The notes: generated from the sequence alone by a model not told the origin. Positions 2,770 through 20,870 are shown, counted from the stretch's first letter. The stretch is 32,000 nucleotides of DNA from Breznakia sp. PF5-3 (GCF_029504745.1 NZ_JAQFIQ010000020.1:9553-41552), one strand, 5' to 3'. Translations and numbers: made by a program.

Positions 2770-2778
2770 GAGGTATAT

Positions 2779-3210
2779 ATGATCGGATTAGTATTAACAG
2801 GGCATGGGGAGTATGCTTCAGGATTAACATCATCATTAAAGTTAATCGCAGGAGATCAGCTTGAACAGTATGAGTATATAGATTTTAAAAAAGAAGATGA
2901 CGTGGATACTTTAGAAAGGAACATAAAAACCGCTTTTGATCGCTTGGAAAATTGTGATGGAATTCTTGTATGTTGTGATTTAATTGGTGGTAGTCCATTT
3001 AAAAGTGCAGTTACATTGGGAATGGAAAAAGAAAATGTGAAAGTAGTAGCAGGAACAAATTTGCCAATGCTTTTAGAAGTGAATACAATGCGCTTTGCGC
3101 ATGATGATGTAGCAACACTGGCTCATCAAATTGCAGAAGTTGGAAAACAGATGATAATGGTATATGAGTACGAAGAGGTATCGGATACGGAAGGAAGTGA
3201 TGGTATCTAA
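2779..3210 (+). CDS. PTS mannose/fructose/sorbose-family EIIA component
   Basis: 143 aa with SD TAGGAGG 5-10 nt upstream. The N-terminus MIGLVLTGHGEYA carries the conserved phosphorylatable His, and CDLIGGSPF follows later, as in Man-family EIIA. Confidence 0.85.
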   Translation: MIGLVLTGHGEYASGLTSSLKLIAGDQLEQYEYIDFKKEDDVDTLERNIKTAFDRLENCDGILVCCDLIGGSPFKSAVTLGMEKENVKVVAGTNLPMLLEVNTMRFAHDDVATLAHQIAEVGKQMIMVYEYEEVSDTEGSDGI

Positions 3211-3211
3211 A

Positions 3212-4033
3212 ATGAAAAAGGGATATTTGTATTTGTTTATCACTGCTTTTTGTTGGAGTACAGCAGGTACATTTATTCGCTTTAATTCACAATCAGGCTT
3301 ATTGATTGCTTGTATTGGCTCAGTAGTAGCATTATTTTTTAATCTATGTTTTTATCGTAAACAATGGAAGTTCAATTCCACTATCTTAGCAGTAGCAATT
3401 TTTCAGGTAATCTGTGGTATTACGTTTATCTATGCAAATCAATTAACGAGTGTTGGAAATGCAATTGTTTTACAGTATACATCGATGATTTTTGTACTAA
3501 TCTTTGAAAGCGTTGATAAACGCAGATTACCAATGTTAAGGCAATTGGTTATCATTGCAATTGTAATATTTGGAATGGTATTGTTCTTTTTAGATAGCAT
3601 CAGTGTGAAGGGGATGATTGGGAATGCTTTAGCAATCATCTCTGGTGCTTTTTTTGGATTGCAATTTTATATCAATACCAAACCATTAGCAGATGCATAT
3701 AGTTCAACCAATATCAGTTACTGTCTAACGATGCTTTTTTTGGTTTTTATTTTTCATGATCTTTTTAAAGTTCGTTCATTAGAATGGGGAGCTATGCTTG
3801 CCAGTGGCGTTTTTCAAACGGCACTTGGAGGGATTTTCTTTGCGAAAGGGATTAAAGAAGTATCTGCATTTACAGCAAATGTAATTTGTATGTCAGAAAT
3901 CATTTTGGCACCTTTATGGACATTTATACTGTTTCATGAAACCATTAGCATCGTTTCACTTTTTGGTGCATTTATTATTGTGTTGGGTATTTTGGCGAAT
4001 ATTTATATTGAATTTCACCAGAGCACAGACTAG
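3212..4033 (+). CDS. EamA/DMT-superfamily permease (10-TM type)
   Basis: The protein is hydrophobic throughout, with two EamA-like halves. I place the start at ATG 3212 (MKKGYLYLFITAF), 1 nt after the EIIA stop and behind a GGAAGGAAG purine tract. The track start at 3164 would overlap EIIA with a non-hydrophobic extension. Confidence 0.75.
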   Translation: MKKGYLYLFITAFCWSTAGTFIRFNSQSGLLIACIGSVVALFFNLCFYRKQWKFNSTILAVAIFQVICGITFIYANQLTSVGNAIVLQYTSMIFVLIFESVDKRRLPMLRQLVIIAIVIFGMVLFFLDSISVKGMIGNALAIISGAFFGLQFYINTKPLADAYSSTNISYCLTMLFLVFIFHDLFKVRSLEWGAMLASGVFQTALGGIFFAKGIKEVSAFTANVICMSEIILAPLWTFILFHETISIVSLFGAFIIVLGILANIYIEFHQSTD

Positions 4034-4363
4034 TCTTACAAGAATCTGCTTGTTATCAACTAGGCTGCTTATGAGAAATGTGTTATAATTTTAATACATA
4101 TTAGTTTATACTATCAGAATATTTATAATATAACAGAAACATATAAATGGTTGTATAGATTTTAAGCTTTGAATGTGAAGACAAACTTGTTCATATGGTT
4201 TTTTTATATATAAAGGTATTAGAATTATAAGGGAAAACATGAAAAAAACGAGTGATATTTATTAGTGAGGGAAATATCATTGTTTAGTAAGCATTTTAGA
4301 TTTATGAAATAAGAAAAATTATATATTTCTTCGAAAGGATGAAATAGTAAAGGAGAAGGCTAC

Positions 4364-5140
4364 ATGGGTGATTATGTAACGGACAAAAGATATAAACATT
4401 TAAATAGAAATTCGGCATTGCCTTTATATTATCAATTGAAAGAACATATCAAAGAAGCGATTGTAAAAGGGCAATATAAGGCAAATGATAAATTGCCAAC
4501 GGAAGAAGAACTATGTAAGGAATTTTCTATATCTCGTCCAGTTGTTCGTCAAGCATATGATGAATTAATCAAAGAAGGATTGGTAGGAAGACACAAGGGA
4601 AGAGGAACATTTGTAAAGAAAACGGCAGATAAACACTCTTTATTTAAAGACTTTATTGGCTTTTCATTTGAAGAAAATGTGAGGGATTTAGAAAAAGAAT
4701 CTAAAATAGTAAAAGTAGAAAAAATTACTGATCCGTTGATTGCTATGCGGATGGAAATTCCTAAAGATAGTGAACTTTTGCATATTATTCGTATTGTTCA
4801 TGATCTTGAATATCCAGTATCGATGATTGAATCGTATTTGCCAGTTGATTATTTTATTAATATCGAAAAATATATGTTGATTTCAATAGATAAAACAATT
4901 ATTGAATTAATTGAAAGCTTGTATGGAATTCATATTGATAAAGCAATTAGATCGCTTACAGCAATGAAGATTTCAAAAGAGAGAGCAGACTTTCTTCATG
5001 GAAATATCGATGATTTGGTATATGAAATAGAAACCCAATATGTTGATGTATTTGAACGTAATGTGATTTTGGAATATGTTACTTATTTAGTGAGTAAAAT
5101 GAATATTAATATTGAAGTAAATCGAAAGCAGTCATTATAA
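4364..5140 (+). CDS. GntR-family transcriptional regulator, HutC/FrlR-like (winged HTH + UTRA-type effector domain)
   Basis: SD AAAGGAG lies upstream. The N-terminal segment LPTEEELCKEFSISRPVVRQAYDELIKEGLVGRHKGRGTFV is a classic GntR HTH. The ~170-aa C-terminal domain is of HutC-subfamily size. Confidence 0.85.
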   Translation: MGDYVTDKRYKHLNRNSALPLYYQLKEHIKEAIVKGQYKANDKLPTEEELCKEFSISRPVVRQAYDELIKEGLVGRHKGRGTFVKKTADKHSLFKDFIGFSFEENVRDLEKESKIVKVEKITDPLIAMRMEIPKDSELLHIIRIVHDLEYPVSMIESYLPVDYFINIEKYMLISIDKTIIELIESLYGIHIDKAIRSLTAMKISKERADFLHGNIDDLVYEIETQYVDVFERNVILEYVTYLVSKMNINIEVNRKQSL

Positions 5141-8529: not shown

Positions 8530-8687
8530 AGTTAAGCCTTCAATGGTAAAAGTTCTTTACTTTTAAAGGATATATGATAAGTTGTAATTATAAATATTTT
8601 TCTTATATTCAGTATGATGATTGTAATTGATTATATGAAATGTTTTAAAAGATTATAATAATAAGTAAAGGGAGTAAGTTGAAAGTG

Positions 8688-9071
8688 ATGAGTAATTATA
8701 CAAATTCGGATTTTTCTGAGGCATTATTAGAAGTACTTTCGATTATAAATAAATGTGAAAAGATGCATGGTAAATTTGAAGTTGGATCTTCCCAATATAC
8801 ATTGCTTACGAATAGAATAAAAGCAATGTATATTGCGAAAATGCTGTTAACTCACAAATTAGATGATGATTTAAATCTGGGAAAAGATATTAACGAATAT
8901 AGTAAAAAAGAGTTAAGTGCATCATTGGAACCAATATCTTCAATTCTTAGAAAATGTGAAAAGGCACAGCGAAAATATGAAGAGGGTACAACAAATTATA
9001 ATCGGTTTGTAAAGCAGATAAAAACTATGTACATTGTAAAGATGCTTGTTGAAGAAGCGTTGGAGAAATAA
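8688..9071 (+). CDS. Hypothetical small helical protein built from two tandem ~45-aa repeats
   Basis: SD AAAGGGAG at 8667-8674. ATG 8688 is preferred over TTG 8679 and GTG 8685. Internal duplication: LLEVLSIINKCEKMHGKFEVGSSQYTLLTNRIKAMYIAKMLL versus LEPISSILRKCEKAQRKYEEGTTNYNRFVKQIKTMYIVKMLV. Confidence 0.6.
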   Translation: MSNYTNSDFSEALLEVLSIINKCEKMHGKFEVGSSQYTLLTNRIKAMYIAKMLLTHKLDDDLNLGKDINEYSKKELSASLEPISSILRKCEKAQRKYEEGTTNYNRFVKQIKTMYIVKMLVEEALEK

Positions 9072-9469: not shown

Positions 9470-10957
9470 ATGGGAAAATATATATTATCTTTGGATTTAG
9501 GGACTACTTCCATTCGGGCGGTATTATTTGATAAACATAGTAATATCTGTGCTATGGAACAAAAGGAATTTACGCAATATTTTGAACATCCAGGATGGGT
9601 AGAACAAGATGCCGAAGAAATATGGCAGACTTTGCAAATCCTTCTTGCAGGCTTGCTTGTAAATCAAAAAATTGATTTTGATGAAGTTGAAGCAATAGGG
9701 ATTACGAATCAAAGAGAAACAACAATTATCTGGGATAAACAAACAGGACTACCAATCTATCGGGCAATTGTATGGCAGTCAACGCAGACAAATGAAATCT
9801 GTGAAGCTTTAATTGAACAAGGGCATACGGAATTTATAAAGCATAAAACAGGATTACCAATTAACTCTTATTTTTCGGCAACTAAAATTCGGTGGATATT
9901 AGATCGTGTTCCAGAAGCCCAAAAACGTGCTGAGGCTGGTGATTTGTTGTTTGGTACAGTGGATAGTTGGATTTTGTGGAAGTTGAGTAATGGCGTTCAT
10001 GCAACAGATTATTCTAATGCTTCACGAACGATGCTATATAATATATTTTCATTAGAATGGGATGGTGAAATATTATCGCTCTTGAATATTCCAAGAAAAC
10101 TATTACCAGAAGTAAAAGATTCATCTGGTTATTTTGCAACAACATCAAAAACACAATTTTTTAATTATGAAATTCCAATTATGGCTATAGCTGGAGACCA
10201 ACAAGCTTCTTTGTTTGGCCATGGATGCTATGAACCTGGAATTGTTAAAAATACCTATGGAACAGGTTGTTTCATGTTAATGAATACATTGGATAAGCCA
10301 ATTATTTCTAAAAATGGACTTTTAACAACAATTGCTTGGGGAATTGATGGTTCTATTGAGTATGCGATTGAAGGTTCGATTTTTGTTGCAGGTAGTGCAG
10401 TACAGTGGCTTAGAGATAGCTTGAAATTAATTGATACTGCTGCAGAAAGCGAGCAGCAAGCTTTATCACTTAATGATAATCAAGGAGTATATCTAGTTCC
10501 AGCATTTGTGGGGTTAGGTTCACCATATTGGGATAGTGAAGCGAAAGGTTCTATTTTTGGACTTACAAGAGGGAGTGGAAGGGAAGCGATTGTTCGTGCA
10601 ACTTTGGAATCCATCTGCTATCAAACTAAAGATGTTTTAGATGTCATGGTCGAAGAATGCAATTGTGATTTGAAGATGCTGAGAGTTGATGGTGGTGCGG
10701 TTGAGAATGCATTTTTAATGCAATTTCAAGCAGATATTTTAGGCGTTGAAATTGATGTAGCACATGTAAGTGAAACAACCGCTTTAGGAGTTGCTTATCT
10801 TGCAGGACTGAGTTCAGGATTCTGGACGACAAAAACGGAAATTCTTCAATACCGTCAAATAAAGAAGCATTATAGTGCGAAGATGAGCAAAGAAAAACAA
10901 AATCAATACTATGAAAAATGGAAAAAAGCAGTGGCAGCAACAAAAATGTTTAAATAA
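9470..10957 (+). CDS. glpK: Glycerol kinase
   Basis: 495 aa with FGGY-kinase motifs: LSLDLGTTSIRAVLFD, GITNQRETTIIWDK, AIAGDQQASLFG, GTGCFMLMNTG-like and VDGGAV. Confidence 0.92.
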   Translation: MGKYILSLDLGTTSIRAVLFDKHSNICAMEQKEFTQYFEHPGWVEQDAEEIWQTLQILLAGLLVNQKIDFDEVEAIGITNQRETTIIWDKQTGLPIYRAIVWQSTQTNEICEALIEQGHTEFIKHKTGLPINSYFSATKIRWILDRVPEAQKRAEAGDLLFGTVDSWILWKLSNGVHATDYSNASRTMLYNIFSLEWDGEILSLLNIPRKLLPEVKDSSGYFATTSKTQFFNYEIPIMAIAGDQQASLFGHGCYEPGIVKNTYGTGCFMLMNTLDKPIISKNGLLTTIAWGIDGSIEYAIEGSIFVAGSAVQWLRDSLKLIDTAAESEQQALSLNDNQGVYLVPAFVGLGSPYWDSEAKGSIFGLTRGSGREAIVRATLESICYQTKDVLDVMVEECNCDLKMLRVDGGAVENAFLMQFQADILGVEIDVAHVSETTALGVAYLAGLSSGFWTTKTEILQYRQIKKHYSAKMSKEKQNQYYEKWKKAVAATKMFK

Positions 10958-10994: not shown

Positions 10995-11044
10995 TTGTAG
11001 AATATAACAAGTTGTGATAAACTTGTATTATAACAATACAAGTT
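10995..11044 (+). promoter_or_regulatory. Candidate sigma-A promoter with overlapping inverted repeats (putative HutC-type operator) upstream of the second GntR gene
   Basis: TTGTAG (10995-11000), a 17-nt spacer, then TAAACT (11018-11023). A near-palindrome TATAACAAGTTGTGATA sits at 11003-11019. A 9-bp inverted repeat ACTTGTATT-N5-AATACAAGT sits at 11021-11043. The heptamer ACAAGTT/AACTTGT occurs three times (11007, 11020, 11038). Confidence 0.5.
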
Positions 11045-11085
11045 TGATGTTATTTTAATACAGGTGATATTTACTAGGAGGAATT

Positions 11086-11814
11086 ATGAGTCAAAAACCA
11101 ACTACTACACCTTTATATTTACAAGTATATAAAGAGTTGTTGAAAAGAATTGAAAATGGTATTTATGAAGTGAATGATATGCTTCCTTCAGAAGCGGAGC
11201 TTCAAAAAGAATTTAGCGTCAGCAGAATTACGATTCGAAGATCCTTGCAGGATTTAGAACTTGCTGGTTATATAAAGATATCGAGAGGAAAAGGAGCTCA
11301 TGTATTGCCACATCGTCAATATACAAATCTTGTTGGAGCATCTAGTTTCTCACAAGAAGCAGTAAAATCAGGTGAGCGACCTTCATCCATTATTTTGGAT
11401 TTCCATGAGATGAAAGCAAGTGGTATTATATGTGAGTACTTGCAAGTGAATGAAGGTGATGATATCTATTATTTGAAGCGTTTACGGCTGAAAAATGGAC
11501 GTATTATTGGAATGAATGAAACATACATATCAAAGAAATTTGGACTTATAATCAGCGATCAGGATTTGGATGAGAAGACATCTATATATGCACTATATGA
11601 AAAGCATGGAGAATCAATTGAACGTGCCGTTGAAACCATTGAAGCACAAATGCCATCTTCAAGTATGCGCAATGAATTGTATATGAGCGAGGGTGAACCA
11701 GTCTTTCGAAGAGAGCGGATAACGTATGGAAGTAATAATCTAGCTTTAGAGTTTTCAATCAATACGTATAAAGCAAATGAATATAAATATGTAATACAAT
11801 TAAAAAAAGGGTAA
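11086..11814 (+). CDS. GntR-family transcriptional regulator, HutC subfamily (HTH + UTRA domain)
   Basis: SD TAGGAGG lies upstream. The N-terminal HTH reads LPSEAELQKEFSVSRITIRRSLQDLELAGYIKISRGKGAHV. The C-terminal ~165 aa are of UTRA-type size. Confidence 0.85.
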   Translation: MSQKPTTTPLYLQVYKELLKRIENGIYEVNDMLPSEAELQKEFSVSRITIRRSLQDLELAGYIKISRGKGAHVLPHRQYTNLVGASSFSQEAVKSGERPSSIILDFHEMKASGIICEYLQVNEGDDIYYLKRLRLKNGRIIGMNETYISKKFGLIISDQDLDEKTSIYALYEKHGESIERAVETIEAQMPSSSMRNELYMSEGEPVFRRERITYGSNNLALEFSINTYKANEYKYVIQLKKG

Positions 11815-11836
11815 CAGGAAAACTGTTACTCTTTTA
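11811..11836 (+). terminator. Rho-independent terminator overlapping the GntR stop codon
   Basis: GTAACAG-gaaaa-CTGTTAC followed by TCTTTT. Confidence 0.6.
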
Positions 11837-11837
11837 G

Positions 11838-11885
11838 TTGACATACATATTATAATAAGTTAAGATATGAATATAACATGTTATA
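11838..11885 (+). promoter_or_regulatory. Candidate operon promoter plus perfect 14-bp palindromic operator
   Basis: TTGACA (11838-11843), a 17-nt spacer, then TAAGAT (11861-11866). It is immediately followed by the perfect palindrome TATAACATGTTATA (11872-11885), at or just after the expected transcription start. Confidence 0.55.
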
Positions 11886-11909
11886 ACAAGATAGAGTAGG
11901 AGGTATCGA

Positions 11910-12647
11910 ATGAAGATATATGATATTCATTCCCATTTGGGAAAAACAAGTTCTGGAGATGAAAATACGCCAACGCAATTGGTGGAGGATCTGGCAAAGT
12001 TTGGTGTAAGTAAAGTAGGAATCAGTTGTCTTTCTGGAATATCTACAAAGGAACAAAACAACTTGATTGCTCGAGCAATGAAAGCATATCCAGAGCAGAT
12101 TGTAGGTTATGGTTTTATTAATCCAAAAGCCCCAGATGCATTACATGAAGTAGATGTATGTTTAAGTGAATATAAGATGAGTGCAATTAAATTTCACTCG
12201 TGGAAACATGGATATTATCCTGATAATACACCCGCTCTAGATGCTATATTAGATAAAATTGAGAGTTATGGAGTACATGTCCAAACGCATGTGGGAACGG
12301 CGCCAATTAGCAATCCATATGTATGGGCAGAATATGCAAAAAAACATCCTAATTTACGCTTTGTTTTCACCCATATTGGATATTACGAATTTGGGCATTC
12401 AACACTGATGGCAATTAAGGATTGTCCAAATGTTTGGGTAGAAACATCCGGACAAATGGATGCACAGGTACTTAAAGATGCAATTAATATATTAGGATCA
12501 AAACGAATTTGCTTTGGTACGGATTGGCCATATAAACCAATTAATATTGAAATTAGTAAATTTGAGGAACTGGAATTGAATGAGGAGCAAAAAGCAGATA
12601 TCTTTTATCGAAATGCTGAAAAGCTCTGGGAGAGAAAGAATGATTAA
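11910..12647 (+). CDS. Small metal-dependent TIM-barrel hydrolase, amidohydrolase-2 (COG2159/PF04909-like), paralog 1
   Basis: SD GGAGG lies upstream. The protein starts MKIYDIHSHLG (HxH metal motif), has later His residues in QTHVG and FTHIG, and carries the strand-8 Asp in FGTDWP (D205, nt 12522-12524). Confidence 0.75.
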   Translation: MKIYDIHSHLGKTSSGDENTPTQLVEDLAKFGVSKVGISCLSGISTKEQNNLIARAMKAYPEQIVGYGFINPKAPDALHEVDVCLSEYKMSAIKFHSWKHGYYPDNTPALDAILDKIESYGVHVQTHVGTAPISNPYVWAEYAKKHPNLRFVFTHIGYYEFGHSTLMAIKDCPNVWVETSGQMDAQVLKDAINILGSKRICFGTDWPYKPINIEISKFEELELNEEQKADIFYRNAEKLWERKND

Positions 12648-13029
12648 CATATTGATAACAACACATGGAGAGCTGGCAAAAGGAATTGTAAATTCAGCGA
12701 AAATGATTATTGGGAAATTTGAGAATGTGGAATATCTTGTCTTTGATGAAACAATGGGTATTTCAATATATGAAGAGAAACTTGCTCAAATTCTAATGAA
12801 TGTAGATGAAGAGAGACAATGGTTGATTTTTACGGATATTCTTGGGGGAACCCCATTTAATACAGTGAGTAAATTTTCCTTTAACAATGATAATATTGCT
12901 GTTTTTTATGGAATAAATTTACCTTTATTAATGGAAGCAATTCTAACAAAAGAAGGAAAAAAAGTTCAAGAAATGGCACAGTCACTTATTAAAACACTAC
13001 CTGATACAGCGGGTTTAAGTACTATTTAG
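12640..13029 (+). CDS. PTS mannose-family EIIA component
   Basis: I place the start at ATG 12640 (MINILITTHGELAKGI, conserved His), overlapping the upstream stop (ATGATTAA). The track start at 12580 lies inside the upstream gene. A later DILGGTPFN motif is present. Confidence 0.85.
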   Translation: MINILITTHGELAKGIVNSAKMIIGKFENVEYLVFDETMGISIYEEKLAQILMNVDEERQWLIFTDILGGTPFNTVSKFSFNNDNIAVFYGINLPLLMEAILTKEGKKVQEMAQSLIKTLPDTAGLSTI

Positions 13030-13041
13030 GAGGTATAAAAA

Positions 13042-13509
13042 ATGAATATTAAAGTATTTAGAATTGATGATCGATTGATTCACGGACAAATTGTTACTGC
13101 GTGGATTGCACAAGCAGAAGCAAAGCAGATTGTAGTAATTGATGATCTTGCAGCAAAAGATACGCTTCAACAATCACTATTACAAATGGCGACGCCTAAA
13201 AATATTAATTTAAAAATTTTGAATGTTGCAGATGGAATTGCTTTTTTGAAGAGTGATGAAGGAAATGATAATACCTTACTATTAGTACGTGGACCTAAAC
13301 AAGCACTTATGATTATTGATGAGTGTACAGGTGTAGAAAGTATTAATGTAGGAAATATCAATATGAAAAAAGGTAAGAAAAAAATCTTAGACAATGTTTG
13401 GGTCGATGAAGATGAAGTAAAAGATTTAAAAGAATTGGGTACAAAAGTAGAAGTGGAAGTACGTGCTGTACCTAATGATCATAAGCAAAATTTAATTGAT
13501 TTATTATAA
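13042..13509 (+). CDS. PTS mannose/sorbose-family EIIB component
   Basis: SD AGGAGG lies upstream. The N-terminus FRIDDRLIHGQIVTAW carries the phospho-His signature of Man-family EIIB. Confidence 0.88.
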   Translation: MNIKVFRIDDRLIHGQIVTAWIAQAEAKQIVVIDDLAAKDTLQQSLLQMATPKNINLKILNVADGIAFLKSDEGNDNTLLLVRGPKQALMIIDECTGVESINVGNINMKKGKKKILDNVWVDEDEVKDLKELGTKVEVEVRAVPNDHKQNLIDLL

Positions 13510-13524
13510 AAAAAGGAGACTAAT

Positions 13525-14274
13525 ATGAGTTTATTTATTCAAGCACTACTTGTGGCTGCAGTAGTTACAATTGCTTTTATTGATGCACACACATTTCAAA
13601 CACATATATTTAGACCAATCGTAATTGGACCTGTTGTTGGGGCAATTATGGGAGATTTTGACACTGGATGTCAGGTTGGGGTGACGGTGGAATTAATGTT
13701 CTTAGCTGTTATTTTCGTAGGAACAGCAGTACCTCCTAATCCAACGATTAGTACAGCGATTGCAACAGCTGTAGCGATTTTGGGAGGCGGAGGAACAGAT
13801 TTAGCTGTTGCTACTGCTTTGCCGGTATCATTTATTGGACAGATTGCAGAGACGGTACAAAATTCGGTTATTAATGTTTGGTTTATGCATCGTGCAGAAC
13901 ATGCAATAGAGAAGTTAAATACAAAGGGATTAGTTTTAAATAATACAATTTTACCAATGGCAATGAATGCACTACTTTATGGAGTACCAACATTCTTAGC
14001 TGTATATTATGGAGCAGATTTTGTTGCTTCGATAATTAGCGCAATACCTGATGAAATTATTACTGGATTATCAGTAGGTGGTAATATGGTTGGAGCTGTT
14101 GGATTTGCATTATTACTTAGTTCAATTAAAAGTAGAACGATGTGGCCATTCTTATTTCTAGGATTTTTCTTTGCATCGTATTTAGCAATTAATATGATTG
14201 GAATAGCATTGTTAGCAGTCGTATTCTCTGCCTTGTATTATTACTTTAAATTAGCAGATGAAGGTAAGGAGTAA
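13525..14274 (+). CDS. PTS mannose/sorbose-family EIIC component
   Basis: SD AAGGAG lies upstream. This is a 249-aa polytopic membrane protein of ManY/SorA type, positioned between EIIB and EIID. Confidence 0.85.
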   Translation: MSLFIQALLVAAVVTIAFIDAHTFQTHIFRPIVIGPVVGAIMGDFDTGCQVGVTVELMFLAVIFVGTAVPPNPTISTAIATAVAILGGGGTDLAVATALPVSFIGQIAETVQNSVINVWFMHRAEHAIEKLNTKGLVLNNTILPMAMNALLYGVPTFLAVYYGADFVASIISAIPDEIITGLSVGGNMVGAVGFALLLSSIKSRTMWPFLFLGFFFASYLAINMIGIALLAVVFSALYYYFKLADEGKE

Positions 14275-14280
14275 TTAGAG

Positions 14281-15096
14281 ATGGAAGCAAAAAAATTAAC
14301 AAAAAAAGATTTATGGCGTGTTTTTTGGAATCAGATGGCAATCCGAGGAACAAATAATTATGAACGTCAACAAAATGGTGGATTTACACAAGCAATGATG
14401 CCAGTGATTGAAAGGGTTTATGACAATGATGACGATAAGCGTGCAGCTTATGAGCGTCATATGGAATATTTCCTTACACAAGATATGGTATCTGCAATTC
14501 CAGTAGGAATAGCAGCTGCAATGGAAGAAATGCATGCAAATGATCCAGAGATGGATCCTAGTTCAATCAACGCAGTGAAAACAGCATTGATGGGACCACT
14601 TGCTGGATTAGGTGATTCTTTGTTGAATGGAACGGCAAGACCAATTTTAGCTAGTTTAGCAATTTCATTAGTACAAGCAGGCCTAGGTTGGGCTGGTCCA
14701 ATTCTCTTTGTTGTTGGAATGAGTATTGTATCGATTGGAATACGTTATCTTGGTGTTTTTCAAGGATATAAGCAAGGAGTTAAATTAGTAGAAAAAATTA
14801 ATTCAAGTGGACTTATTACAAAAATAACAGATATCGCAGCAATCGCTGCCTATACGATTGTTGGTGGATTTATTCCAGCTCTTGTATTTATTAATATTCC
14901 AATTGAAATTGCTTCAGGGGATACAGTAATCAATATTCAAGAAACACTTGATGGACTTATGCCAGGAGTACTTGGGTTATCATATACCTTTTTGATGTAT
15001 TGGTTAGTTACAAAGAAAAAAATATCAGCAGTTAAGTTGATTTTCTTAACAATGGTAGTAGCAATTGCTGGTGTATATTTAGGCATTTTAGGATAG
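14281..15096 (+). CDS. PTS mannose/sorbose-family EIID component
   Basis: The N-terminus LTKKDLWRVFWNQMAIRGTNNYERQQNGGFTQAMMPVIERVY is the characteristic ManZ/EIID amphipathic region, followed by TM segments. Confidence 0.88.
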   Translation: MEAKKLTKKDLWRVFWNQMAIRGTNNYERQQNGGFTQAMMPVIERVYDNDDDKRAAYERHMEYFLTQDMVSAIPVGIAAAMEEMHANDPEMDPSSINAVKTALMGPLAGLGDSLLNGTARPILASLAISLVQAGLGWAGPILFVVGMSIVSIGIRYLGVFQGYKQGVKLVEKINSSGLITKITDIAAIAAYTIVGGFIPALVFINIPIEIASGDTVINIQETLDGLMPGVLGLSYTFLMYWLVTKKKISAVKLIFLTMVVAIAGVYLGILG

Positions 15097-15115
15097 TATT
15101 ACGGAGGTGAAGATA

Positions 15116-15835
15116 ATGAAATTTGATATTCATGCACACATTGTTAAAGATAAAAATGAGTATGCAATTGATGAATTATTAGCTGATATGACAAAGAATG
15201 ACATTGAAAAAAGAGTCATCTCAACGTTTGATGGAGATACAATCAAGCAAGGAAATGAAGATGTAGCAGCTTTGGTAAGACAATATCCTGATAAATTGAT
15301 TGGATGTGCATTACTAAATCCAGCGTTGCATTCGATTGAAGATGATATTGAACATGCATTATCTTTGCCTGAAATTAAAATGATTGAATTAAATTCATTT
15401 ATACATGGTTATTTTCCAGATCATTGTGAAGGTGTAGAAATTTTATTTCAATACCTTGCAAAGCATTCAATGCCCATAAAAATATTTTCTGGACTTGGTG
15501 CACATGCTTTGCCACATCAGTGGGAGAGGTATGTTAAAAAGTATCCAATGATACCTTTTGTTTTTCTACATTTGGGTTGCTTTGATTATGGATATGGTTG
15601 TGTTGATATTATAAAACGAAATGCTAACGCTTATGCAGAAACGTCAAATCAATATGAGCTTCAAATTTTAAAGAAGGCGTTTTCAGAAATTGATATCAAT
15701 AAAATTGTATTTGGATCTAGTTATCCTGAACGATTTACAAGGAATGGTTATGAAATCTATGATTTATTCCCTTTGTCAAAAGAAGATAGAGAGCAAATCG
15801 AAAAAGAAAATATGAAGATACTGTTAAAGGTATAA
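15116..15835 (+). CDS. Small amidohydrolase-2-type TIM-barrel protein, paralog 2 (divergent, strand-8 Asp not evident)
   Basis: ATG 15116 sits 8 nt after GGAGG (15103-15107). The protein starts MKFDIHAHIV and is colinear with paralog 1 (YPxxIxG..NP, HGYxPD, KKxPxxxFVFxHxG, ETSxQ, FGxxxP). It reads FGSSYP where paralog 1 has FGTDWP. Confidence 0.7.
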   Translation: MKFDIHAHIVKDKNEYAIDELLADMTKNDIEKRVISTFDGDTIKQGNEDVAALVRQYPDKLIGCALLNPALHSIEDDIEHALSLPEIKMIELNSFIHGYFPDHCEGVEILFQYLAKHSMPIKIFSGLGAHALPHQWERYVKKYPMIPFVFLHLGCFDYGYGCVDIIKRNANAYAETSNQYELQILKKAFSEIDINKIVFGSSYPERFTRNGYEIYDLFPLSKEDREQIEKENMKILLKV

Positions 15836-15862
15836 CTATGTATATAAGAGTAAGGAGTTTTT

Positions 15863-16855
15863 ATGGAAAGAAAAATAAATGCCGATGAGGTAAGAAAAAT
15901 TCTTCCATCAACGGTTATTAAAGATTTTGATGATATTGTATTTCAAAAGGTTTTAGGAGCTAGTAAGCATATTAAAATGATTGGCAATATGATAGAAGCA
16001 ATTTGTATTGAAGACTGTAAAGCAAATGTAAGTGCAGTAGAGTTTCATAAGCATATTCATTTGTTAGGTGATTTCTTCATTCAAACTAGGGGAGAAGCAT
16101 CACAAGCGGTTACGAATGCAATTTATCTGATGTTAGATGGAATGAAAGAAAAAGTAGAAAATAGTAATATTGGTGAAATAACGAATCAAGTAATTAAACA
16201 AAAAAATTGTTATTTTATAAATGCAGAAAAGAATATGCAGCAAGTTGTAAAGTATGGGGTGGAAATTGCAGAAGCTTGTGAAAATATCATGATTTATGAT
16301 TATTCGAGTACAGTAGAAGCCATTTTATGCAGTGTAGAACATCCTAAAACAATATATATTGCAGAAAGTAGAGCTATCAATGGAGGGTATCCATTTGTTC
16401 AACCTTGCTTAGATAAAGGACATAAAATAAAATTTTTTCCTGATGCAAGTGTTATGTATTATATAAAGGATTGTGACCTTGCATTTATGGGTGCTGAAAC
16501 ATTTTATCCTGATGGAACTGGTTTCAATACGATTGGATCGGACATGGTTGCTTTAGCGTGTCAATATTACAAAGTTCCATTATATATGGTAACACCATTC
16601 ATAAAACTTGATGTTCGTCCTGTATATGGAAAAAAGAAAGAATTGGTAATCAATGATCTTCAAGAGAAATTAGGGAAGATTGCTACACCTAAAAGAAATG
16701 TGGCAGCAATTGATTATCGTACACCCGAATTGATTGGTGTATGTCCTGAACATATTTATGCTTTTATCACAGAAAAGGGAATAATTCCAAGTACCCAAAT
16801 GTATGATATAAGTATGAAATATATAACAGAGTTGAGAGGCAAAAATTATGTTTAA
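15863..16855 (+). CDS. IF-2B/MtnA-family protein (sugar-phosphate isomerase-like; eIF-2B alpha/beta/delta-related)
   Basis: SD AAGGAG lies upstream. Family-typical segments are IMIYDYSSTV, YIAESRAINGG, MGAETFYPDGTGFNTIGSDMVALACQYYKVPLYMVTP and FITEKGIIP. Confidence 0.75.
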   Translation: MERKINADEVRKILPSTVIKDFDDIVFQKVLGASKHIKMIGNMIEAICIEDCKANVSAVEFHKHIHLLGDFFIQTRGEASQAVTNAIYLMLDGMKEKVENSNIGEITNQVIKQKNCYFINAEKNMQQVVKYGVEIAEACENIMIYDYSSTVEAILCSVEHPKTIYIAESRAINGGYPFVQPCLDKGHKIKFFPDASVMYYIKDCDLAFMGAETFYPDGTGFNTIGSDMVALACQYYKVPLYMVTPFIKLDVRPVYGKKKELVINDLQEKLGKIATPKRNVAAIDYRTPELIGVCPEHIYAFITEKGIIPSTQMYDISMKYITELRGKNYV

Positions 16856-17648
16856 ACCAGATTGTACAGTATTTGCGATGATTCAACCAAGCCCCCTTCC
16901 TGGAAGTTATCGACATGATTCAAAAACAATTGATGAGATTGTTGAAGAAGTATTGAAAGAAACCCAGATGGTTGTGGATAATGGTTTTGATGGGGTCATC
17001 TTACAAAATATGAACGATATGCCAATTAAGCAAATTGCATCACCTGAAGCAATCGCATATATGAGTAGGATTGGCTATGAGATAAAACAAAAATATCCAT
17101 CTTTAACACTTGGTGTGTTATTGAACTGGGATGGTGTTGCTAGCTTAGCAGTTGCTGATGCAATTGGTGCAGATTTTGTTCGTGTTGAACATTTGTTTAC
17201 GGGAGCTAGTGTAACAAGTGCTGGTATTTTACAAGCACAGTGTGTAGAGATAGCCAATATTAGAAAACGTACCAAATCTAAAATACCTGTATATGTTGAT
17301 ATACAAGAAGTTCATGGAGTGGCTTTAGGTGCCAAACCAATGGAGGACGCAGCTTGGGAAGCGGTTCATGAGGCTTTTGCAGATGGATTGTTTATTTCTG
17401 GAAAGAATGTTGAAGAAAGTATCCAGATGGCCAAAGCAGTACGAACGAAACTTCCTAATACACCGATGATTTTAGGAGGTGGTGCAACAGGCGACAATAT
17501 TTATGAGTTGTTGCATTATTATGATGGAGTCTCAGTAGCTACATGGATTAAGAATGGAGATATGAAAAATAACATAGACCCACAAAGAGCTGAAATATTT
17601 AATGCCGAAGCACAACGTGCGAAAGAAGACAAAAAACACCGATCATAA
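16848..17648 (+). CDS. BtpA/SgcQ-family TIM-barrel protein
   Basis: The start overlaps the upstream gene by 8 nt. It is colinear by eye with E. coli SgcQ: an N-terminal segment ending PLPGS, then NGFDGVILQN, then LNWDGVASLAVADAIGADFVRVE, and a C-terminal YDGVSVATWIKNGD. Confidence 0.7.
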   Translation: MFKPDCTVFAMIQPSPLPGSYRHDSKTIDEIVEEVLKETQMVVDNGFDGVILQNMNDMPIKQIASPEAIAYMSRIGYEIKQKYPSLTLGVLLNWDGVASLAVADAIGADFVRVEHLFTGASVTSAGILQAQCVEIANIRKRTKSKIPVYVDIQEVHGVALGAKPMEDAAWEAVHEAFADGLFISGKNVEESIQMAKAVRTKLPNTPMILGGGATGDNIYELLHYYDGVSVATWIKNGDMKNNIDPQRAEIFNAEAQRAKEDKKHRS

Positions 17649-17665
17649 ATGATTAGGTGTTTTTT
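17631..17665. terminator. Bidirectional terminator shared by convergent genes
   Basis: AAAAAACACC (17631-17640) pairs with GGTGTTTTTT (17656-17665). The loop contains the stop codons of both convergent genes. A-run and T-run flanks allow function in both directions. Confidence 0.65.
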
Positions 17666-19902
17666 ACTGCTTTACGTAAACTATTAGCTGTATGTGTTTT
17701 ACTATATTGAAGCATATCAAGTGGAGTTCCTTGAAAAACAACTTCTCCACCATTTTTTCCACCATTAGGACCAATATCAATAATCCAATCTGCCTGTTTG
17801 ATTACATCAAGATTGTGTTCAATGATAATTAATGTATTTCCTTTATCAGCCAGATGATTGAATAGCTTTAATAATTTTTTTATATCTGATATATGCAATC
17901 CTGTTGTAGGTTCATCAAAGACATATACTTTGCCTTTTTTATTTAGATGTTTAGCTAGTTTTATTCGTTGTAATTCTCCACCAGATAAAGTCGAAAGAGG
18001 TTGTCCTAAGGACATATATGCAAGTCCTACATCTTTCATTGCTTGAAGTTTCGTGTTTATCTTCTTATGGTCGAAGAACATCAATGCTTCTTCAATGCTC
18101 ATATTCAATACATCAACAATGTTTTTATGCTTATACGTATAAGAAAGTGCTAATTGATTATAGCGATTACCCCCACAATGTTCACAAGTGTTGATAATAG
18201 GATCCATGAATATAAGTTCAGTAATTAAAACACCCTTTCCTTGACATTTTTCACAGGCTCCAGTTGAATTGAAACTAAAATGGTCCTTTCCAACGTTACA
18301 ATGGTTGGCAAACAATGTACGGATATCACTTAAAATATCTAAATAGGTAGCAGGTGTAGATTTTGTTGAAGTGGTAATTTGCGATTGATCTACGTGAATA
18401 ATATCATTAGGATAAGTATTCGTAAAAACTTTGGATATTAAGGTACTTTTTCCAGATCCAGCTACACCACTAATCACATTTATAATGTGTTTAGGAATAT
18501 TTACATGAACATGCTTTAAGTTGTGTTGGTTTGCGTCTTTGATAGAAAAAGATGTATTCCATTTTCGAGGGGTATGATTAATATCTGTTTCTTCAAGTAA
18601 CGCTCTAGCAGTAAGTGTATCTGTAAGTAGTAGCTCTTTATAGTCTCCTTGAAAAACAATATTGCCTCCGTGTGTTCCTGCGTATTTTCCTATGTCGATA
18701 ATTTCATCAGCTATGGCGATGATATCACGGTCATGTTCAACAACAATGACCGTATTTCCTTTATCACGTAAATCTTGAAGTAATAATATCATTCTTTCGA
18801 CATCATGAGGATGCATGCCAACACTAGGTTCATCAAAAATATAAATCATATCTGTTAAACTACTCCCCATATAACGGACAAGTTTTAGACGTTGTGCTTC
18901 ACCACCTGACAAAGATGAGGATTCTCGATTTAAATGAAGATAGGGAAGACCAATATCAATCAATCGTTTGATACCTGACTTCAAAGTGTCTAAAACAGAT
19001 TGGACAGAAGCATCATGAATGGTTTCTAATACATGAATTAAATCACTTAATTCCATTTCACACATATCATTAATTGTATAGTTCATAATTTTACAATTCA
19101 AAGCAGCAGAGTTTAACCTTTTTCCCTGGCAATCAGGACAAAGATTTTGACTAATAAAAGAGTTTCCTTTATCTTTTATGGGGGTTATTAATTTACTTAA
19201 ATCTCTTGTTAGATATTTCTGTGTTATTTTGTGATAGACTCCTGTGATTTTTTCGTTAACAAGTTTTTTATCATGATTTCGTCTACCATAGAGAAGCAAT
19301 GATAATTCTTCATCTGAATATTGAGCAATTGGTTTATCCATGTCAAAAAGTTTTGATTCTTTATATTGTTTCCAATACCAAGTATTTGGAGCAAAAGTAG
19401 ATTCTTTTATACAACCTTGGTTAAGTGATTTATCAAAATCAACGAGTTTATTGATATCAACAGTCTTGGTTATTCCTATTCCTGAGCAGGTAGGGCACAT
19501 ACCGTTTGGATCATTGAAAGAAAAGTGTGATGCGCTACCAACAAAAGGTTTTCCAATTCTTGAATAGAGTAATCGTAAGCTGGTATACAAATCACTAATA
19601 GTTCCTACAGTGGAACGAATATTACCTCCTAGTGGTGTTTGATCAATGATGATGGAAGCACTTAAGTTTTCAATTTTATCAACATCTGGTCTTGGATATT
19701 TTGGCATTCTACCACGGATGAATGCAGGATAAGTATCTTTCATTTGTCGTTGTGATTCAGCTGCAATGGTATCAAAAACAATACTGGATTTACCAGAACC
19801 TGAAACACCTGTAAAGACAATTAATTTGTGTTTGGGTATCTGCAATGATACGTTTTTTAAATTATTTTGTTTTAATCCTTGAATGATAATGTTATTGTTC
19901 AT
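17653..19902 (-). CDS. UvrA-like ABC ATPase paralog lacking the UvrB-binding region (class II UvrA / DrrC-like)
   Basis: Two ABC modules are present (GVSGSGKSS with LSGGEAQR; GVAGSGKST with LSGGELQR). Zn-finger pairs are CPTCSGIG, CPDCQGKR, CEKCQGKG and CEHCGGNR. At ~750 aa it is much shorter than the ~940 aa of canonical UvrA. I moved the start to ATG 19902 (MNNNIIIQG), 6 nt after GGAGGAG. Confidence 0.85.
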   Translation of the reverse strand: MNNNIIIQGLKQNNLKNVSLQIPKHKLIVFTGVSGSGKSSIVFDTIAAESQRQMKDTYPAFIRGRMPKYPRPDVDKIENLSASIIIDQTPLGGNIRSTVGTISDLYTSLRLLYSRIGKPFVGSASHFSFNDPNGMCPTCSGIGITKTVDINKLVDFDKSLNQGCIKESTFAPNTWYWKQYKESKLFDMDKPIAQYSDEELSLLLYGRRNHDKKLVNEKITGVYHKITQKYLTRDLSKLITPIKDKGNSFISQNLCPDCQGKRLNSAALNCKIMNYTINDMCEMELSDLIHVLETIHDASVQSVLDTLKSGIKRLIDIGLPYLHLNRESSSLSGGEAQRLKLVRYMGSSLTDMIYIFDEPSVGMHPHDVERMILLLQDLRDKGNTVIVVEHDRDIIAIADEIIDIGKYAGTHGGNIVFQGDYKELLLTDTLTARALLEETDINHTPRKWNTSFSIKDANQHNLKHVHVNIPKHIINVISGVAGSGKSTLISKVFTNTYPNDIIHVDQSQITTSTKSTPATYLDILSDIRTLFANHCNVGKDHFSFNSTGACEKCQGKGVLITELIFMDPIINTCEHCGGNRYNQLALSYTYKHKNIVDVLNMSIEEALMFFDHKKINTKLQAMKDVGLAYMSLGQPLSTLSGGELQRIKLAKHLNKKGKVYVFDEPTTGLHISDIKKLLKLFNHLADKGNTLIIIEHNLDVIKQADWIIDIGPNGGKNGGEVVFQGTPLDMLQYSKTHTANSLRKAVKNT

Positions 19903-19994
19903 ATTACACTCCTCCATACCGTTTATTCTATAGGAAGGTAGATAGAAATTCTTGATATTTTTTGCTATACTTTAGCCAGATATATGGAGAATGT

Positions 19995-20870
19995 ATGAAC
20001 TATTTGCAAGCATTAGAGATTGCTATAAATTATATAGAAGATAATATGGAAAAGAATATTACAGTTTTTGATATTGCAAGGACTACAGGTTATTCATATT
20101 ATCATTTTTCACGTGTTTTCCAAGCTATAATTGGAGAATCGATTGGTTCGTATTTGAAGAGCAGACGTTTGAGTGAAGCAGCAGATGATTTGTTAAATAG
20201 TAATACAAATATATTGGAGATTGCTTTAAAGTATGGTTTTACAACGCATGAAGCTTTCACAAGAACGTTTAAGAAGCGATACCATAAGTCTCCATCATCA
20301 TATCGAAAGCACGGGGTTAGCTATTTTATAGAGAAAAAGAAAGTTATCGATTTTTCGATGTTAGAATATCTTGAAAAAAATCATAAGATTCAAAAACCAA
20401 AAATCATGAGAGTAGAGACTTTTACAACGATTGGAAAAAACTATCAAACAAGTCTTTTAAATAATGAAATAGTAAATGCATGGAAAGATTTTATTTCTTA
20501 TATTAAAAAAAATATAACGTCTATTCCCATTAGAAGTTATGCCTTATGCAATACAGATACTCCATATTATGATGAAAAAGGAGATGTTTTATTTTCGCAT
20601 CAATTATCAATTGATTATAGTAGTACTTATAAGAATATTCCTGATACTATGGAAAAACGTATTGTATTGGGGGGAAGATACGCAGTGTTTTTGCACCAGG
20701 GCAAAGTAAGAGATTTAGTAAAAACTTATGAATATATCTGGGGGATTTGGTTGTTAAATAATGAAGAGGAATTTGATGAATCAAGAGTGGATTTTGAAGT
20801 TTACGATGAACGCTTTTTAGGAACTGAACACTTGGAAAGTATCGTTGAAATTTTTATTCCTTTAAAATGA
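19995..20870 (+). CDS. AraC-family transcriptional regulator with C-terminal GyrI-like small-molecule-binding domain
   Basis: ATG 19995 lies behind TGGAGA. The N-terminal HTH pair reads ITVFDIARTTGYSYYHFSRVFQ and ILEIALKYGFTTHEAFTRTFKKRY. The C-terminal ~160 aa, ending FEVYDERF, are typical of GyrI-like/AraC_E_bind domains. Confidence 0.8.
   Translation: MNYLQALEIAINYIEDNMEKNITVFDIARTTGYSYYHFSRVFQAIIGESIGSYLKSRRLSEAADDLLNSNTNILEIALKYGFTTHEAFTRTFKKRYHKSPSSYRKHGVSYFIEKKKVIDFSMLEYLEKNHKIQKPKIMRVETFTTIGKNYQTSLLNNEIVNAWKDFISYIKKNITSIPIRSYALCNTDTPYYDEKGDVLFSHQLSIDYSSTYKNIPDTMEKRIVLGGRYAVFLHQGKVRDLVKTYEYIWGIWLLNNEEEFDESRVDFEVYDERFLGTEHLESIVEIFIPLK

Follow-up and report, generated by a model that had tools for sequence, protein, structure and literature searches.

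The DNA analysed here is a 32,000-nucleotide stretch from Breznakia sp. PF5-3 (Erysipelotrichaceae, insect gut), referred to as the window, and the system in question is a cassette of nine genes at positions 11086-17665. Gene calls and Pfam searches placed all nine genes on the plus strand, in the order HutC-type regulator, AmhA, EIIA, EIIB, EIIC, EIID, AmhB, an IF-2B-fold protein and BtpA, where AmhA and AmhB are two amidohydrolase-family proteins and EIIA to EIID are the subunits of a mannose-family phosphotransferase system (PTS). Catabolic operons linked to a PTS are familiar, but this set of enzymes is not. The cassette appears to encode an undescribed pathway, and we judge it an even call that in it an acylated or lactonised sugar is taken up and phosphorylated by the PTS, hydrolysed, isomerised and then epimerised or cleaved. 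The last two genes may form an unrecognised sugar-phosphate module, with a carboxylate-dependent isomerase/deaminase in the eIF2B/MtnA fold followed by the first enzyme activity of the BtpA/SgcQ family, a proposal that we hold with a little less than even confidence. A full-text literature search, which left many subscription papers uncovered, found no description of the gene set or of any BtpA/SgcQ enzyme activity. An earlier note on this DNA had likewise proposed that a phosphorylated derivative of a sugar is processed here by a PTS-linked route not yet described. That idea is supported, as the cassette is a conserved, co-regulated unit in which no protein reaches an equivalog cut-off, but the uronate and the deoxy-sugar that the note had listed as possible substrates are disfavoured, as explained below. 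The same gene set in a characterised pathway, which would speak against the note, was looked for in the literature and none was found.

Gene content and recurrence of the cassette

Protein families were called with Pfam and NCBIfam profiles and their curated cut-offs. The Pfam profile searches agreed for all nine genes with the family assignments of the earlier note, including a HutC-type regulator of its own ahead of the operon (an N-terminal GntR winged helix-turn-helix and a C-terminal UTRA domain are both present) and a BtpA/SgcQ TIM barrel as the last gene (the TIGR00259 cut-off was passed and the structural model is a barrel). From AmhA through BtpA the recomputed intergenic gaps were -8, +12, +15, +6, +10/+19, +27 and -8 nt, in agreement with the range of -8 to +27 nt reported for eight co-directional genes, and the statement that the cassette has no kinase, aldolase, dehydrogenase, nag/aga enzyme or glycosidase is true at the Pfam/NCBIfam level. 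None of the nine cassette proteins reached an NCBIfam equivalog or substrate-specific cut-off, and family membership was confirmed by NCBIfam for BtpA/SgcQ only.

All four subunit families of a mannose-family PTS (EIIA-man, PTSIIB_sorb, EII-Sor and EIID-AGA) are present. Putative phosphorylatable histidines were found in the window sequence within MINILITTHGE of EIIA and RIDDRLIHGQ of EIIB; the N-terminal T-H-G of EIIA and the R-I-D-D-R-L-I-H-G-Q of EIIB are the motifs that hold the phosphorylatable His. The best NCBIfam match of EIIA was AgaF (97 bits vs a cut-off of 130) and that of EIIC was AgaW (170 bits vs 300), TIGR00828 also fell short of its threshold (219 vs 293), and every NCBIfam match of EIIA, EIIB, EIIC and EIID to a substrate-specific PTS subfamily (Man, Aga, Sor, Lev, Gfr, Dga) was below cut-off. 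The best NCBIfam match of the regulator, NF041547, scored 119 bits vs a cut-off of 275. These results bear on whether the cassette is a known mannose-family PTS pathway in disguise, namely aga for N-acetylgalactosamine and galactosamine (GalNAc/GalN), nag for N-acetylglucosamine (GlcNAc), gfr for fructoselysine/glucoselysine, dga for glucosaminate or sor for sorbose. We regard this as highly improbable: AgaF and AgaW are indeed the best matches of EIIA and EIIC and amino-sugar operons typically have a HutC-type regulator, but all PTS subunits stay below the cut-offs of the substrate-specific models, and Pfam detected in the cassette no NagA/AgaA (PF01979), no NagB or SIS deaminase/deglycase, no tagatose-6-P kinase/aldolase, no DgaE/DgaF and no sorbose-1-P reductase.

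The neighbourhood and co-occurrence analysis of BtpA, IF-2B and amidohydrolase genes that the earlier note had called for recovered a conserved PTS cassette, together with a second form in which the IF-2B-like/BtpA pair outlasts the amidohydrolases. Neighbourhoods were taken from contigs encoding relatives and from a metagenome scan; a genome scan with strict exact-peptide patterns of the IF-2B-like protein gave one locus. The same gene order was found in more than 25 independent loci of four classes (Bacilli, Clostridia, Erysipelotrichia and Coriobacteriia), a recurrence far beyond chance. Carriers include Ruminiclostridium sufflavum, a Bacillaceae genome, Blautia, an Erysipelotrichaceae metagenome-assembled genome (MAG), a Peptoniphilaceae MAG, Enorma phocaeensis (Coriobacteriia), a very common gut Clostridiaceae species, Isobaculum melis and Neobacillus, and about 25 metagenomic contigs carry the cassette as well. 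Rearrangements are limited to a shift of EIIA or the regulator to the 3' end and an occasional fusion of EIIC with EIID, and in almost every locus the regulator gene accompanies the cassette. The flanks differ each time and the chromosomal sites are unrelated; in E. phocaeensis, for example, the cassette lies between dnaX and ybaB/recR. Since no extra enzyme gene is constant beside the cassette, its eight genes look sufficient for the pathway. The cassette is a self-contained, horizontally mobile and co-regulated catabolic unit.

Several loci showed further features of their own. In the abundant gut Clostridiaceae (L080 and L081, 7996-15206), the rpoBC-rpsLG-fusA region, otherwise very conserved, is interrupted by the complete cassette, which sits between rpoC and rpsL. 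Peribacillus loiseleuriae (L004, ~12500-14400) has an uncalled and probably decayed second copy of the IF-2B-like and BtpA genes after the intact pair, in a region with Rep3 replication and Fic genes that is probably an integrated plasmid remnant. A link to a Glc-family PTS in Peribacillus and Lactovum was considered and set aside, as the EIIBC gene lies 4 kb off in a plasmid-like mosaic or is split in fragments, and we did not build on it.

The IF-2B-like and BtpA pair

In the 54 loci with enough upstream DNA, each full-length BtpA gene of this subfamily is directly preceded by an IF-2B-like gene, most often with an overlap of 1-8 nt; loci without an upstream IF-2B-like gene hold truncated BtpA fragments only. 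The pair is the invariant functional core of the cassette. It is also found in a second architecture with a HutC-type regulator, a ribose/allose-type binding protein, a CUT2 ATP-binding cassette (ABC) transporter, a ribokinase-like PfkB and a protein of ~500 aa with a CE4 (polysaccharide-deacetylase) domain. This ABC form is present in soil contigs and about 17 human-gut contigs, or about 20 by another count, and two contigs carry ABC, PfkB and the pair without any hydrolase. In the ABC variants, the binding proteins match RbsB and AlsB, and binding protein and kinase are both ribose-type. Because the pair also stands behind ABC and PfkB, it appears to process a phosphorylated monosaccharide however the phosphate was added. 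AmhA is never found without AmhB, nor either of them without the mannose-type PTS, and since a CE4-domain protein fills the hydrolase slot of the ABC variants, the hydrolase step seems to be replaceable. An apparent loss of the IF-2B-like gene in high-GC ABC-type contigs was rejected: it came from spurious open reading frames (ORFs; e.g. a 355-aa BtpA and a 403-aa antisense frame), and tblastn found the normal gene in another frame.

Variations around the pair were noted in individual contigs. Ahead of two hydrolase-free ABC, PfkB and pair clusters (L039, 1553-2047; L067, 1742-2236) there is a gene for a 164-aa ureidoglycolate-lyase-family (PF04115) protein. Beside another ABC-type cluster (L044, 279-1868), a 204-aa SIS protein of the KpsF/GutQ type (arabinose-5-P isomerase) without CBS domains forms a pair with a remote second paralogue of BtpA (25-29% identity), that is, an isomerase and BtpA pairing with another isomerase fold. 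Gut contigs L069 and L073-L077 hold a C-terminal BtpA fragment only, without an IF-2B-like gene. A fusion-partner (Rosetta-stone) search among long BtpA proteins returned only a phage-integrase chimera and unannotated extensions; the chimera, P0245 (402 aa), joins a phage-integrase N-terminus to the C-terminal 160 residues of the BtpA subfamily, and suggests an integrative element targeting btpA.

The IF-2B-like protein aligned confidently (HMMER) to the ribose-1,5-bisphosphate (R15P) isomerases of Thermococcus and Pyrococcus (PDB 3a11 and 5yfs, E 1e-13 to 1e-11). The ligand residues of the Pyrococcus enzyme PH0208 are listed in its structure paper (PMC5789824), and the alignment mapped them onto the window protein. 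At the two catalytic positions, numbered Cys133/135 and Asp202/204 in the known enzymes, Cys135 and Asp204 of PH0208 correspond to Asp146 and Glu212. The 5-phosphate ligands are kept (Ser137 as Ser148, Lys240 as Lys248, and the Gly-Ala-Gly loop as Gly-Ala-Ser), and so is the sugar ligand Asn214, as Asn222. Arg65 is kept among the 1-phosphate ligands (Arg76), whereas Arg22, Gln166 and Lys215 are replaced by Leu31, Gly174 and Thr223. All mapped residues were invariant in 21 PTS-context sequences (43-58% identity) and in the ABC-context orthologues. In eIF2B-alpha, the 5-phosphate site is kept, the 1-phosphate site is lost and Ala or Gly stands at the Cys position (PMC5789824). The window protein has an eIF2B-alpha-like monophosphate pocket together with two carboxylates at the catalytic positions. 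Its equivalog scores were 74 vs a cut-off of 314 for TIGR00511, 63 vs 186 for TIGR00524 and 30 vs 279 for TIGR00512. Judged by its sequence, the protein belongs to a distinct subfamily and is not MtnA, R15P isomerase or DrdI. Of the earlier label, IF-2B/MtnA-like, the IF-2B family membership stood (PF01008, E 5e-25), but an enzyme of the MtnA, R15P isomerase or DrdI type did not, as catalytic and 1-phosphate residues are lost. We infer that the protein is an aldose/ketose isomerase acting on the terminal monophosphate of a sugar. Carboxylate bases are usual in sugar-phosphate isomerases such as RpiA, TIM and PGI.

This residue pattern bears directly on a salvage role of the MtnA, DrdI or R15P isomerase type (a dihydroxyacetone phosphate (DHAP) shunt or a pentose-bisphosphate-like route) for 5-deoxyribose, methylthioribose or ribose-1-phosphate derivatives. 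The known enzymes do have the fold, the Pfam family, the 5-phosphate ligands, Arg65 and the Asn that binds the sugar in common with the window protein, which is matched best by R15P isomerase and MtnA in NCBIfam and the PDB, and the ABC-variant PfkB scores about as well for ribose-1-phosphate kinase as for ribokinase, both far below cut-offs. But the catalytic Cys/Asp pair is replaced and three of the four 1-phosphate ligands are lost, which disfavours a 5-deoxyribose- or methylthioribose-like substrate, and the scores lie far below the equivalog cut-offs (74 vs 314; 30 vs 279). A terminal-monophosphate pocket fits the product of a PTS or of a ribokinase-like enzyme and therefore argues against a DHAP-shunt or pentose-bisphosphate role; aldose-1-phosphates are not made by a PTS. 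Pfam found no MtnK/DrdK kinase, phosphorylase or class II aldolase in the cassette, and the context of the known enzymes is nucleoside or methionine salvage whereas here it is a PTS. We give such a salvage role almost no credence. Uronates also fit poorly, because the isomerase pocket keeps the terminal-phosphate site.

BtpA is the more conserved member of the pair, with 65-80% identity across classes within the subfamily vs about 50% for the IF-2B-like partner. Its nearest relatives outside the subfamily are 30-46% identical and E. coli SgcQ is 27% identical; among 1.84 billion representative proteins, 1,241 BtpA/SgcQ relatives had E <= 0.001. Orthology to the cyanobacterial photosystem I protein BtpA was not supported (NF045918, 120 vs a cut-off of 400), and a PDB sequence search with BtpA gave no match at E <= 1. 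The AlphaFold model is a confident (beta/alpha)8 barrel (pLDDT, the predicted local distance difference test score, 87.5). Its fold matches are TrpA (tryptophan synthase alpha), ThiE, HisF, KDPG/KDPGal aldolase, ribulose-phosphate 3-epimerase and GGGP synthase, with template modelling (TM) scores of 0.55-0.7 and identities of 12-18%. Over 120 diverse family members, N54, D57, R112, D151, D179 and the G210-x-G212 loop after beta7 are invariant; N54, D57, R112 and D151 are polar residues at the barrel strand ends, the GGG after beta7 is a phosphate-loop motif, and the cassette subfamily has Gln13 where the wider family has His. Invariant polar strand-end residues with a GGG loop are what one expects of an enzyme with a phosphate-ester ligand. 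No Lys is invariant in the family, which makes a mechanism of the class I aldolase type unlikely. From this model, BtpA is presumed to be the last enzyme of the pathway, an epimerase or C-C lyase on a ketose phosphate.

The same residues help to decide whether the IF-2B-like protein and BtpA could instead be non-enzymatic, as sugar-phosphate sensors or a PTS chaperone, with the amidohydrolases as the only catalysts. There is precedent in the eIF2B regulatory subunits, which have the same fold, are non-catalytic and bind sugar phosphates (PMC5789824), and a 2026 paper gives SgcQ 'PTS chaperone-like features'. Cyanobacterial BtpA is not known in any role other than that of a biogenesis factor. 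Yet the pair occurs with ABC and PfkB without a PTS and is therefore not a PTS chaperone, and its IF-2B-like member has invariant Asp and Glu at the catalytic positions, not the Ala/Gly of eIF2B-alpha. The invariant polar residues of BtpA lie on the catalytic face of the barrel, and if neither protein were an enzyme, nothing in the cassette would lead from a sugar phosphate into central metabolism. We consider a non-enzymatic pair very unlikely.

Hydrolases, candidate substrates and a proposed route

AmhA has the full HxH/His/His/Asp set of its family (H7/H9 on beta1, H127 on beta5, H155 on beta6 and D205 on beta8), invariant in 28 sequences. With an AlphaFold model of pLDDT 92, Foldseek matched it at TM 0.7-0.8 and 13-19% identity to PF04909 decarboxylases, LigI-type lactonases, the LigJ hydratase and small uncharacterised barrels. 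Fold searches of this kind put both BtpA and AmhA in broad superfamilies and do not discriminate between reaction types, and AmhA is presumed to be a metal-dependent hydrolase (deacylase or lactonase) or a decarboxylase. AmhB is 26% identical to AmhA and keeps HxH and the beta6 His, but in six of six orthologues the beta5 His has become Phe and the beta8 Asp has become Ser or Asn. AmhB is nevertheless under clear constraint (65% mean column identity), which together with the residue losses suggests that it is a partner subunit of AmhA or an enzyme with non-canonical chemistry. The two amidohydrolase-2 paralogs of the earlier note are thus both PF04909 members but not an equivalent pair, AmhB being without two canonical residues.

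As to the substrate, we rate an N-acetylated rare amino sugar or another acylated sugar slightly above a lactone, because a CE4 protein takes the hydrolase slot in the ABC variant, the best PTS matches are Aga-like, and the cassette has a self-contained, nag-like logic. A lactone is the starting point of an Ula-type route for sugar acids, in which the PTS would phosphorylate an ascorbate/erythorbate-type or aldono-lactone, AmhA would hydrolyse the ring, AmhB or BtpA would decarboxylate a keto-acid phosphate, and the IF-2B-like protein and/or BtpA would convert a pentulose-5-phosphate into the pentose-phosphate pathway. We think this route rather unlikely, though several observations point to it. 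The characterised PF04909 enzymes are lactonases, decarboxylases and hydratases, AmhA best matches LigW/gamma-resorcylate-type decarboxylases and LigI-like lactonases, and BtpA resembles ribulose-phosphate-binding barrels. The ribose-type binding protein and kinase of the ABC variant would fit an intermediate at the pentose level. Directly upstream of the cassette, the Peptoniphilaceae MAG (L001, 918-5374) has genes for a UlaG-like metallo-beta-lactamase, EIIC-GAT, EIIB and EIIA_2, and EIIC-GAT, EIIB and a split transketolase precede it directly in Erysipelotrichaceae-like contigs, Ruminiclostridium and the Erysipelotrichaceae MAG (L010, L012, L017, L026 and L071, ~300-4100). These transketolase and ula genes, however, are upstream of the operator, probably belong to neighbouring operons and are missing from most loci. 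In addition, the hydrolase slot of the ABC variant holds a CE4 (deacetylase-fold) protein and not a decarboxylase, mannose-family PTSs are not known for lactones whereas ascorbate uses the SgaT/UlaA family, and a reading of its invariant residues shows BtpA to be without the Asp-x-Lys-x-x-Asp signature of KGPDC/OMPDC-type decarboxylases. The ula-like neighbours may be functionally tied to substrates resembling ascorbate, or they may form a sugar island by coincidence. The transketolase itself is probably not a member of the pathway, as it lies upstream of the operator and is grouped with the neighbouring EIIC-GAT PTS genes in about 7 loci.

Under the favoured reading, that of an acylated or lactonised sugar entering through the PTS, the pathway would run as follows. 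Without inducer, the HutC-type repressor would sit on TATAACATGTTATA over the transcription start. When the genes are expressed, the mannose-family PTS, whose components are observed, would import the substrate and phosphorylate its terminal hydroxyl, and AmhA, probably with its degenerate paralogue AmhB, would remove an N- or O-acyl group or open a lactone. The IF-2B-fold enzyme would then carry out a C1/C2 isomerisation of the sugar terminal monophosphate, possibly with deamination, in which the mapping of the active site would make Asp146 and Glu212 the acid/base pair. The BtpA barrel, translationally coupled to the isomerase gene, would epimerise the resulting ketose phosphate or cleave a C-C bond, and the end product may be fructose-6-P or an intermediate of the pentose-phosphate pathway. 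In other bacteria, the isomerase and BtpA steps would be kept, while an ABC transporter of the ribose type, a PfkB kinase and a hydrolase with a CE4 domain would take over uptake, phosphorylation and hydrolysis.

Several points weigh against this route. The chemistry of all four enzymes is inferred throughout, and the reaction type of BtpA is a guess, as an epimerase and a metal-dependent lyase are both plausible from its model. The nearest structures and profile matches of AmhA are decarboxylases, and the PF04909 members whose function is known act on carboxylates, as lactonases, decarboxylases or hydratases, with no known deacetylases among them, which favours the lactone/decarboxylation route. 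The CE4 assignment is weak (Pfam E 3e-8 and 6e-5), with no PDB sequence match below E 0.4 and matches only at E about 0.5. The ula-like PTS and split transketolase genes adjoin the cassette in two lineages and may mean pentulose rather than hexosamine chemistry. Finally, we know of cyanobacterial BtpA only as a photosystem I biogenesis factor, and a non-enzymatic role of the family is possible.

Among known systems, nag and aga follow the logic of the favoured route, with a mannose-family PTS followed by an amidohydrolase-superfamily hydrolase and an isomerase under a HutC-type regulator. The fold class of the IF-2B-like isomerase also includes NagB and RpiA. The nag/aga enzymes are of the PF01979 and Glucosamine_iso (PF01182)/SIS families, whereas the cassette has PF04909 and IF-2B proteins and an extra BtpA and is without tagatose-6-P kinase/aldolase. 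L-ascorbate utilisation (ula) would share with the cassette a PTS, lactone hydrolysis, a ribulose-phosphate-binding-barrel enzyme and pentulose-phosphate interconversions, with no kinase or dehydrogenase, but none of UlaA-G was found by Pfam at 11086-17665 and the families of the PTS, the lactonase (PF04909 vs metallo-beta-lactamase) and the barrel all differ. The D-allose pathway (AlsBAC, a kinase, RpiB/AlsI and the AlsE 3-epimerase) leads, as proposed for the cassette, from an isomerase to a barrel epimerase and from a rare aldose phosphate to fructose-6-P; its isomerase and barrel come from other families, and the PTS form of the cassette adds a hydrolase step. The E. coli sgcRAQCBXE cluster also has a BtpA/SgcQ barrel in a PTS operon with a sugar-phosphate-converting enzyme. 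Its PTS, however, is of the galactitol/ascorbate (EIIC-GAT) type instead of the mannose type, its partner enzymes are the RPE-like epimerase SgcE and the M42 hydrolase SgcX instead of IF-2B-like and PF04909 proteins, and its regulator is DeoR-type instead of HutC-type. A 2026 E. coli atlas describes the substrate and biochemistry of sgc as still to be established. The sgc parallel drawn in the earlier note therefore stands as regards an unassigned system but is an analogy only, as 27% identity to SgcQ does not support orthology.

Regulatory sites, neighbouring genes and significance

The promoter/operator and the bidirectional terminator that had been placed at the two ends of the operon were found at 11838-11885 and 17631-17665, and the fold of the terminator is significant (Table 1). 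A 16-nt pattern search for the operator found one further site in the window, with 3 mismatches, and an AGGAGG ribosome-binding site lies 7 nt ahead of the AmhA start codon. Among the PTS-linked loci, 31 had a promoter region that could be searched, and 28 of these carry the motif TATAAC-N0-2-GTTATA there, at a density of 2.7 per kb vs 0.14 per kb elsewhere in the same loci (about 20-fold). The two half-sites stand 2 nt apart in Erysipelotrichia-like loci and adjoin directly (0 nt) in those of Clostridia and Bacilli. A palindrome kept and enriched in orthologous promoters indicates that regulator and operator co-evolved with the cassette. The HutC-type protein is presumed to be the cassette repressor, with binding to this operator predicted from sequence.

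Upstream of the regulator gene, the inverted repeats at 11002-11045 are a possible autoregulatory site, and the hairpin across the regulator stop codon is probably a weak terminator between gntR and the operon. At the other end, none of 200 shuffled sequences folded as well as the hairpin at 17631-17665. It lies between an A-run and a T-run and could therefore terminate in both directions, and we presume it to be a bidirectional terminator; its long loop and inner stem kept it off the list of a simple terminator scan.

Table 1. Positions, in window coordinates, of the cassette genes and of the putative regulatory elements around them.
Feature	Position	Strand	Evidence or detail
Overlapping inverted repeats with TATAACA half-sites, 5' of regulator gene	11002..11045	+	ATATAACAAGTT/AACTTGTATTAT and AAACTTGTATT/AATACAAGTTT
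GntR+UTRA regulator, HutC subfamily	11086..11814	+	Pfam GntR E 2e-17, UTRA E 7e-29
Hairpin across regulator stop codon	11805..11835	+	13-nt arms, 92% complementary, flanked by A-/T-runs
Sigma-70-like promoter	TTGACA 11838-11843, TAAGAT 11861-11866	+	17-nt spacer; consensus match only, 10/12 positions
Putative operator, perfect 14-bp palindrome TATAACATGTTATA	11872..11885	+	Directly 3' of the -10 element
AmhA, Amidohydro_2 (PF04909), 245 aa	11910..12647	+	Pfam E 8e-36
EIIA-man	12640..13029	+	Pfam E 2e-22; start adopted from the gene call in locus L002
EIIB, PTSIIB_sorb	13042..13509	+	Pfam E 8e-43
EIIC, EII-Sor	13525..14274	+	Pfam E 2e-65
EIID, EIID-AGA	14281..15096	+	Pfam E 1e-88
AmhB, weak Amidohydro_2 (PF04909)	15107..15835 (alternative ATG at 15116)	+	Pfam E 8e-10
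IF-2B-fold protein (PF01008)	15863..16855	+	Pfam E 5e-25
BtpA (PF03437)	16848..17648 (8-nt overlap with IF-2B-like gene)	+	Pfam E 2e-50; TIGR00259 180 vs cut-off 153
Presumed terminator hairpin, common to btpA and the convergent uvrA-like gene	17631..17665	.	-13.6 kcal/mol, z = -5.5

Other genes of the window lie on either side of the cassette. The FGGY gene upstream (9470-10957) is a canonical GlpK (769 bits vs a cut-off of 498); it was considered as a missing kinase of the pathway and rejected on this identity and because it is not conserved beside the cassette in other genomes. On the minus strand at 17653-19917, convergent with btpA and sharing the terminator hairpin, there is a gene for a 754-aa UvrA paralogue that does not travel with the cassette. 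It narrowly passes TIGR00630 (744 vs 730) and fails NF001503 (744 vs 1147), which suggests a class II/UvrA2-like protein rather than a repair UvrA, and it is followed by an AraC/GyrI-like regulator at 19962-20870. Near the start of the window, a 710-aa ORF (637-2769, plus strand) fuses PfkB kinase, HAD hydrolase and ribulose-phosphate 3-epimerase domains, and after it come an orphan EIIA-man, an EamA transporter and a second GntR/UTRA regulator (2779-3210, 3164-4033 and 4364-5140). This unusual kinase-phosphatase-epimerase fusion may belong to another uncharacterised sugar pathway. A 130-aa ORF without a family match (8679-9071, plus strand) apparently consists of two similar halves of ~55 residues (LEVLSIINKCEKMHGKFEVGSSQYTLLTNRIKAMYIAKMLL and LEPISSILRKCEKAQRKYEEGTTNYNRFVKQIKTMYIVKMLV).

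No reaction is known for the widespread BtpA/SgcQ family, whether in cyanobacteria or in the E. coli sgc system, and we know the IF-2B fold to be catalytic only in aldose-1-phosphate isomerases. With the terminal-phosphate site of eIF2B-alpha and a new acid/base pair, the IF-2B-like protein would therefore be a natural intermediate between metabolic enzymes and translation-factor subunits. The cassette is common in gut metagenomes, one Clostridiaceae variant of it having been found in 778 index blocks, and its substrate is therefore probably a real component of dietary, host or microbial glycans. The cassette is small and self-contained and has a clear operator, and is thus directly testable. 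If the IF-2B-like/BtpA pair is the two-enzyme module proposed above, the identity of its substrate would reveal a new nutrient for common gut and soil Firmicutes and would also open a biochemical way into E. coli SgcQ and cyanobacterial BtpA.

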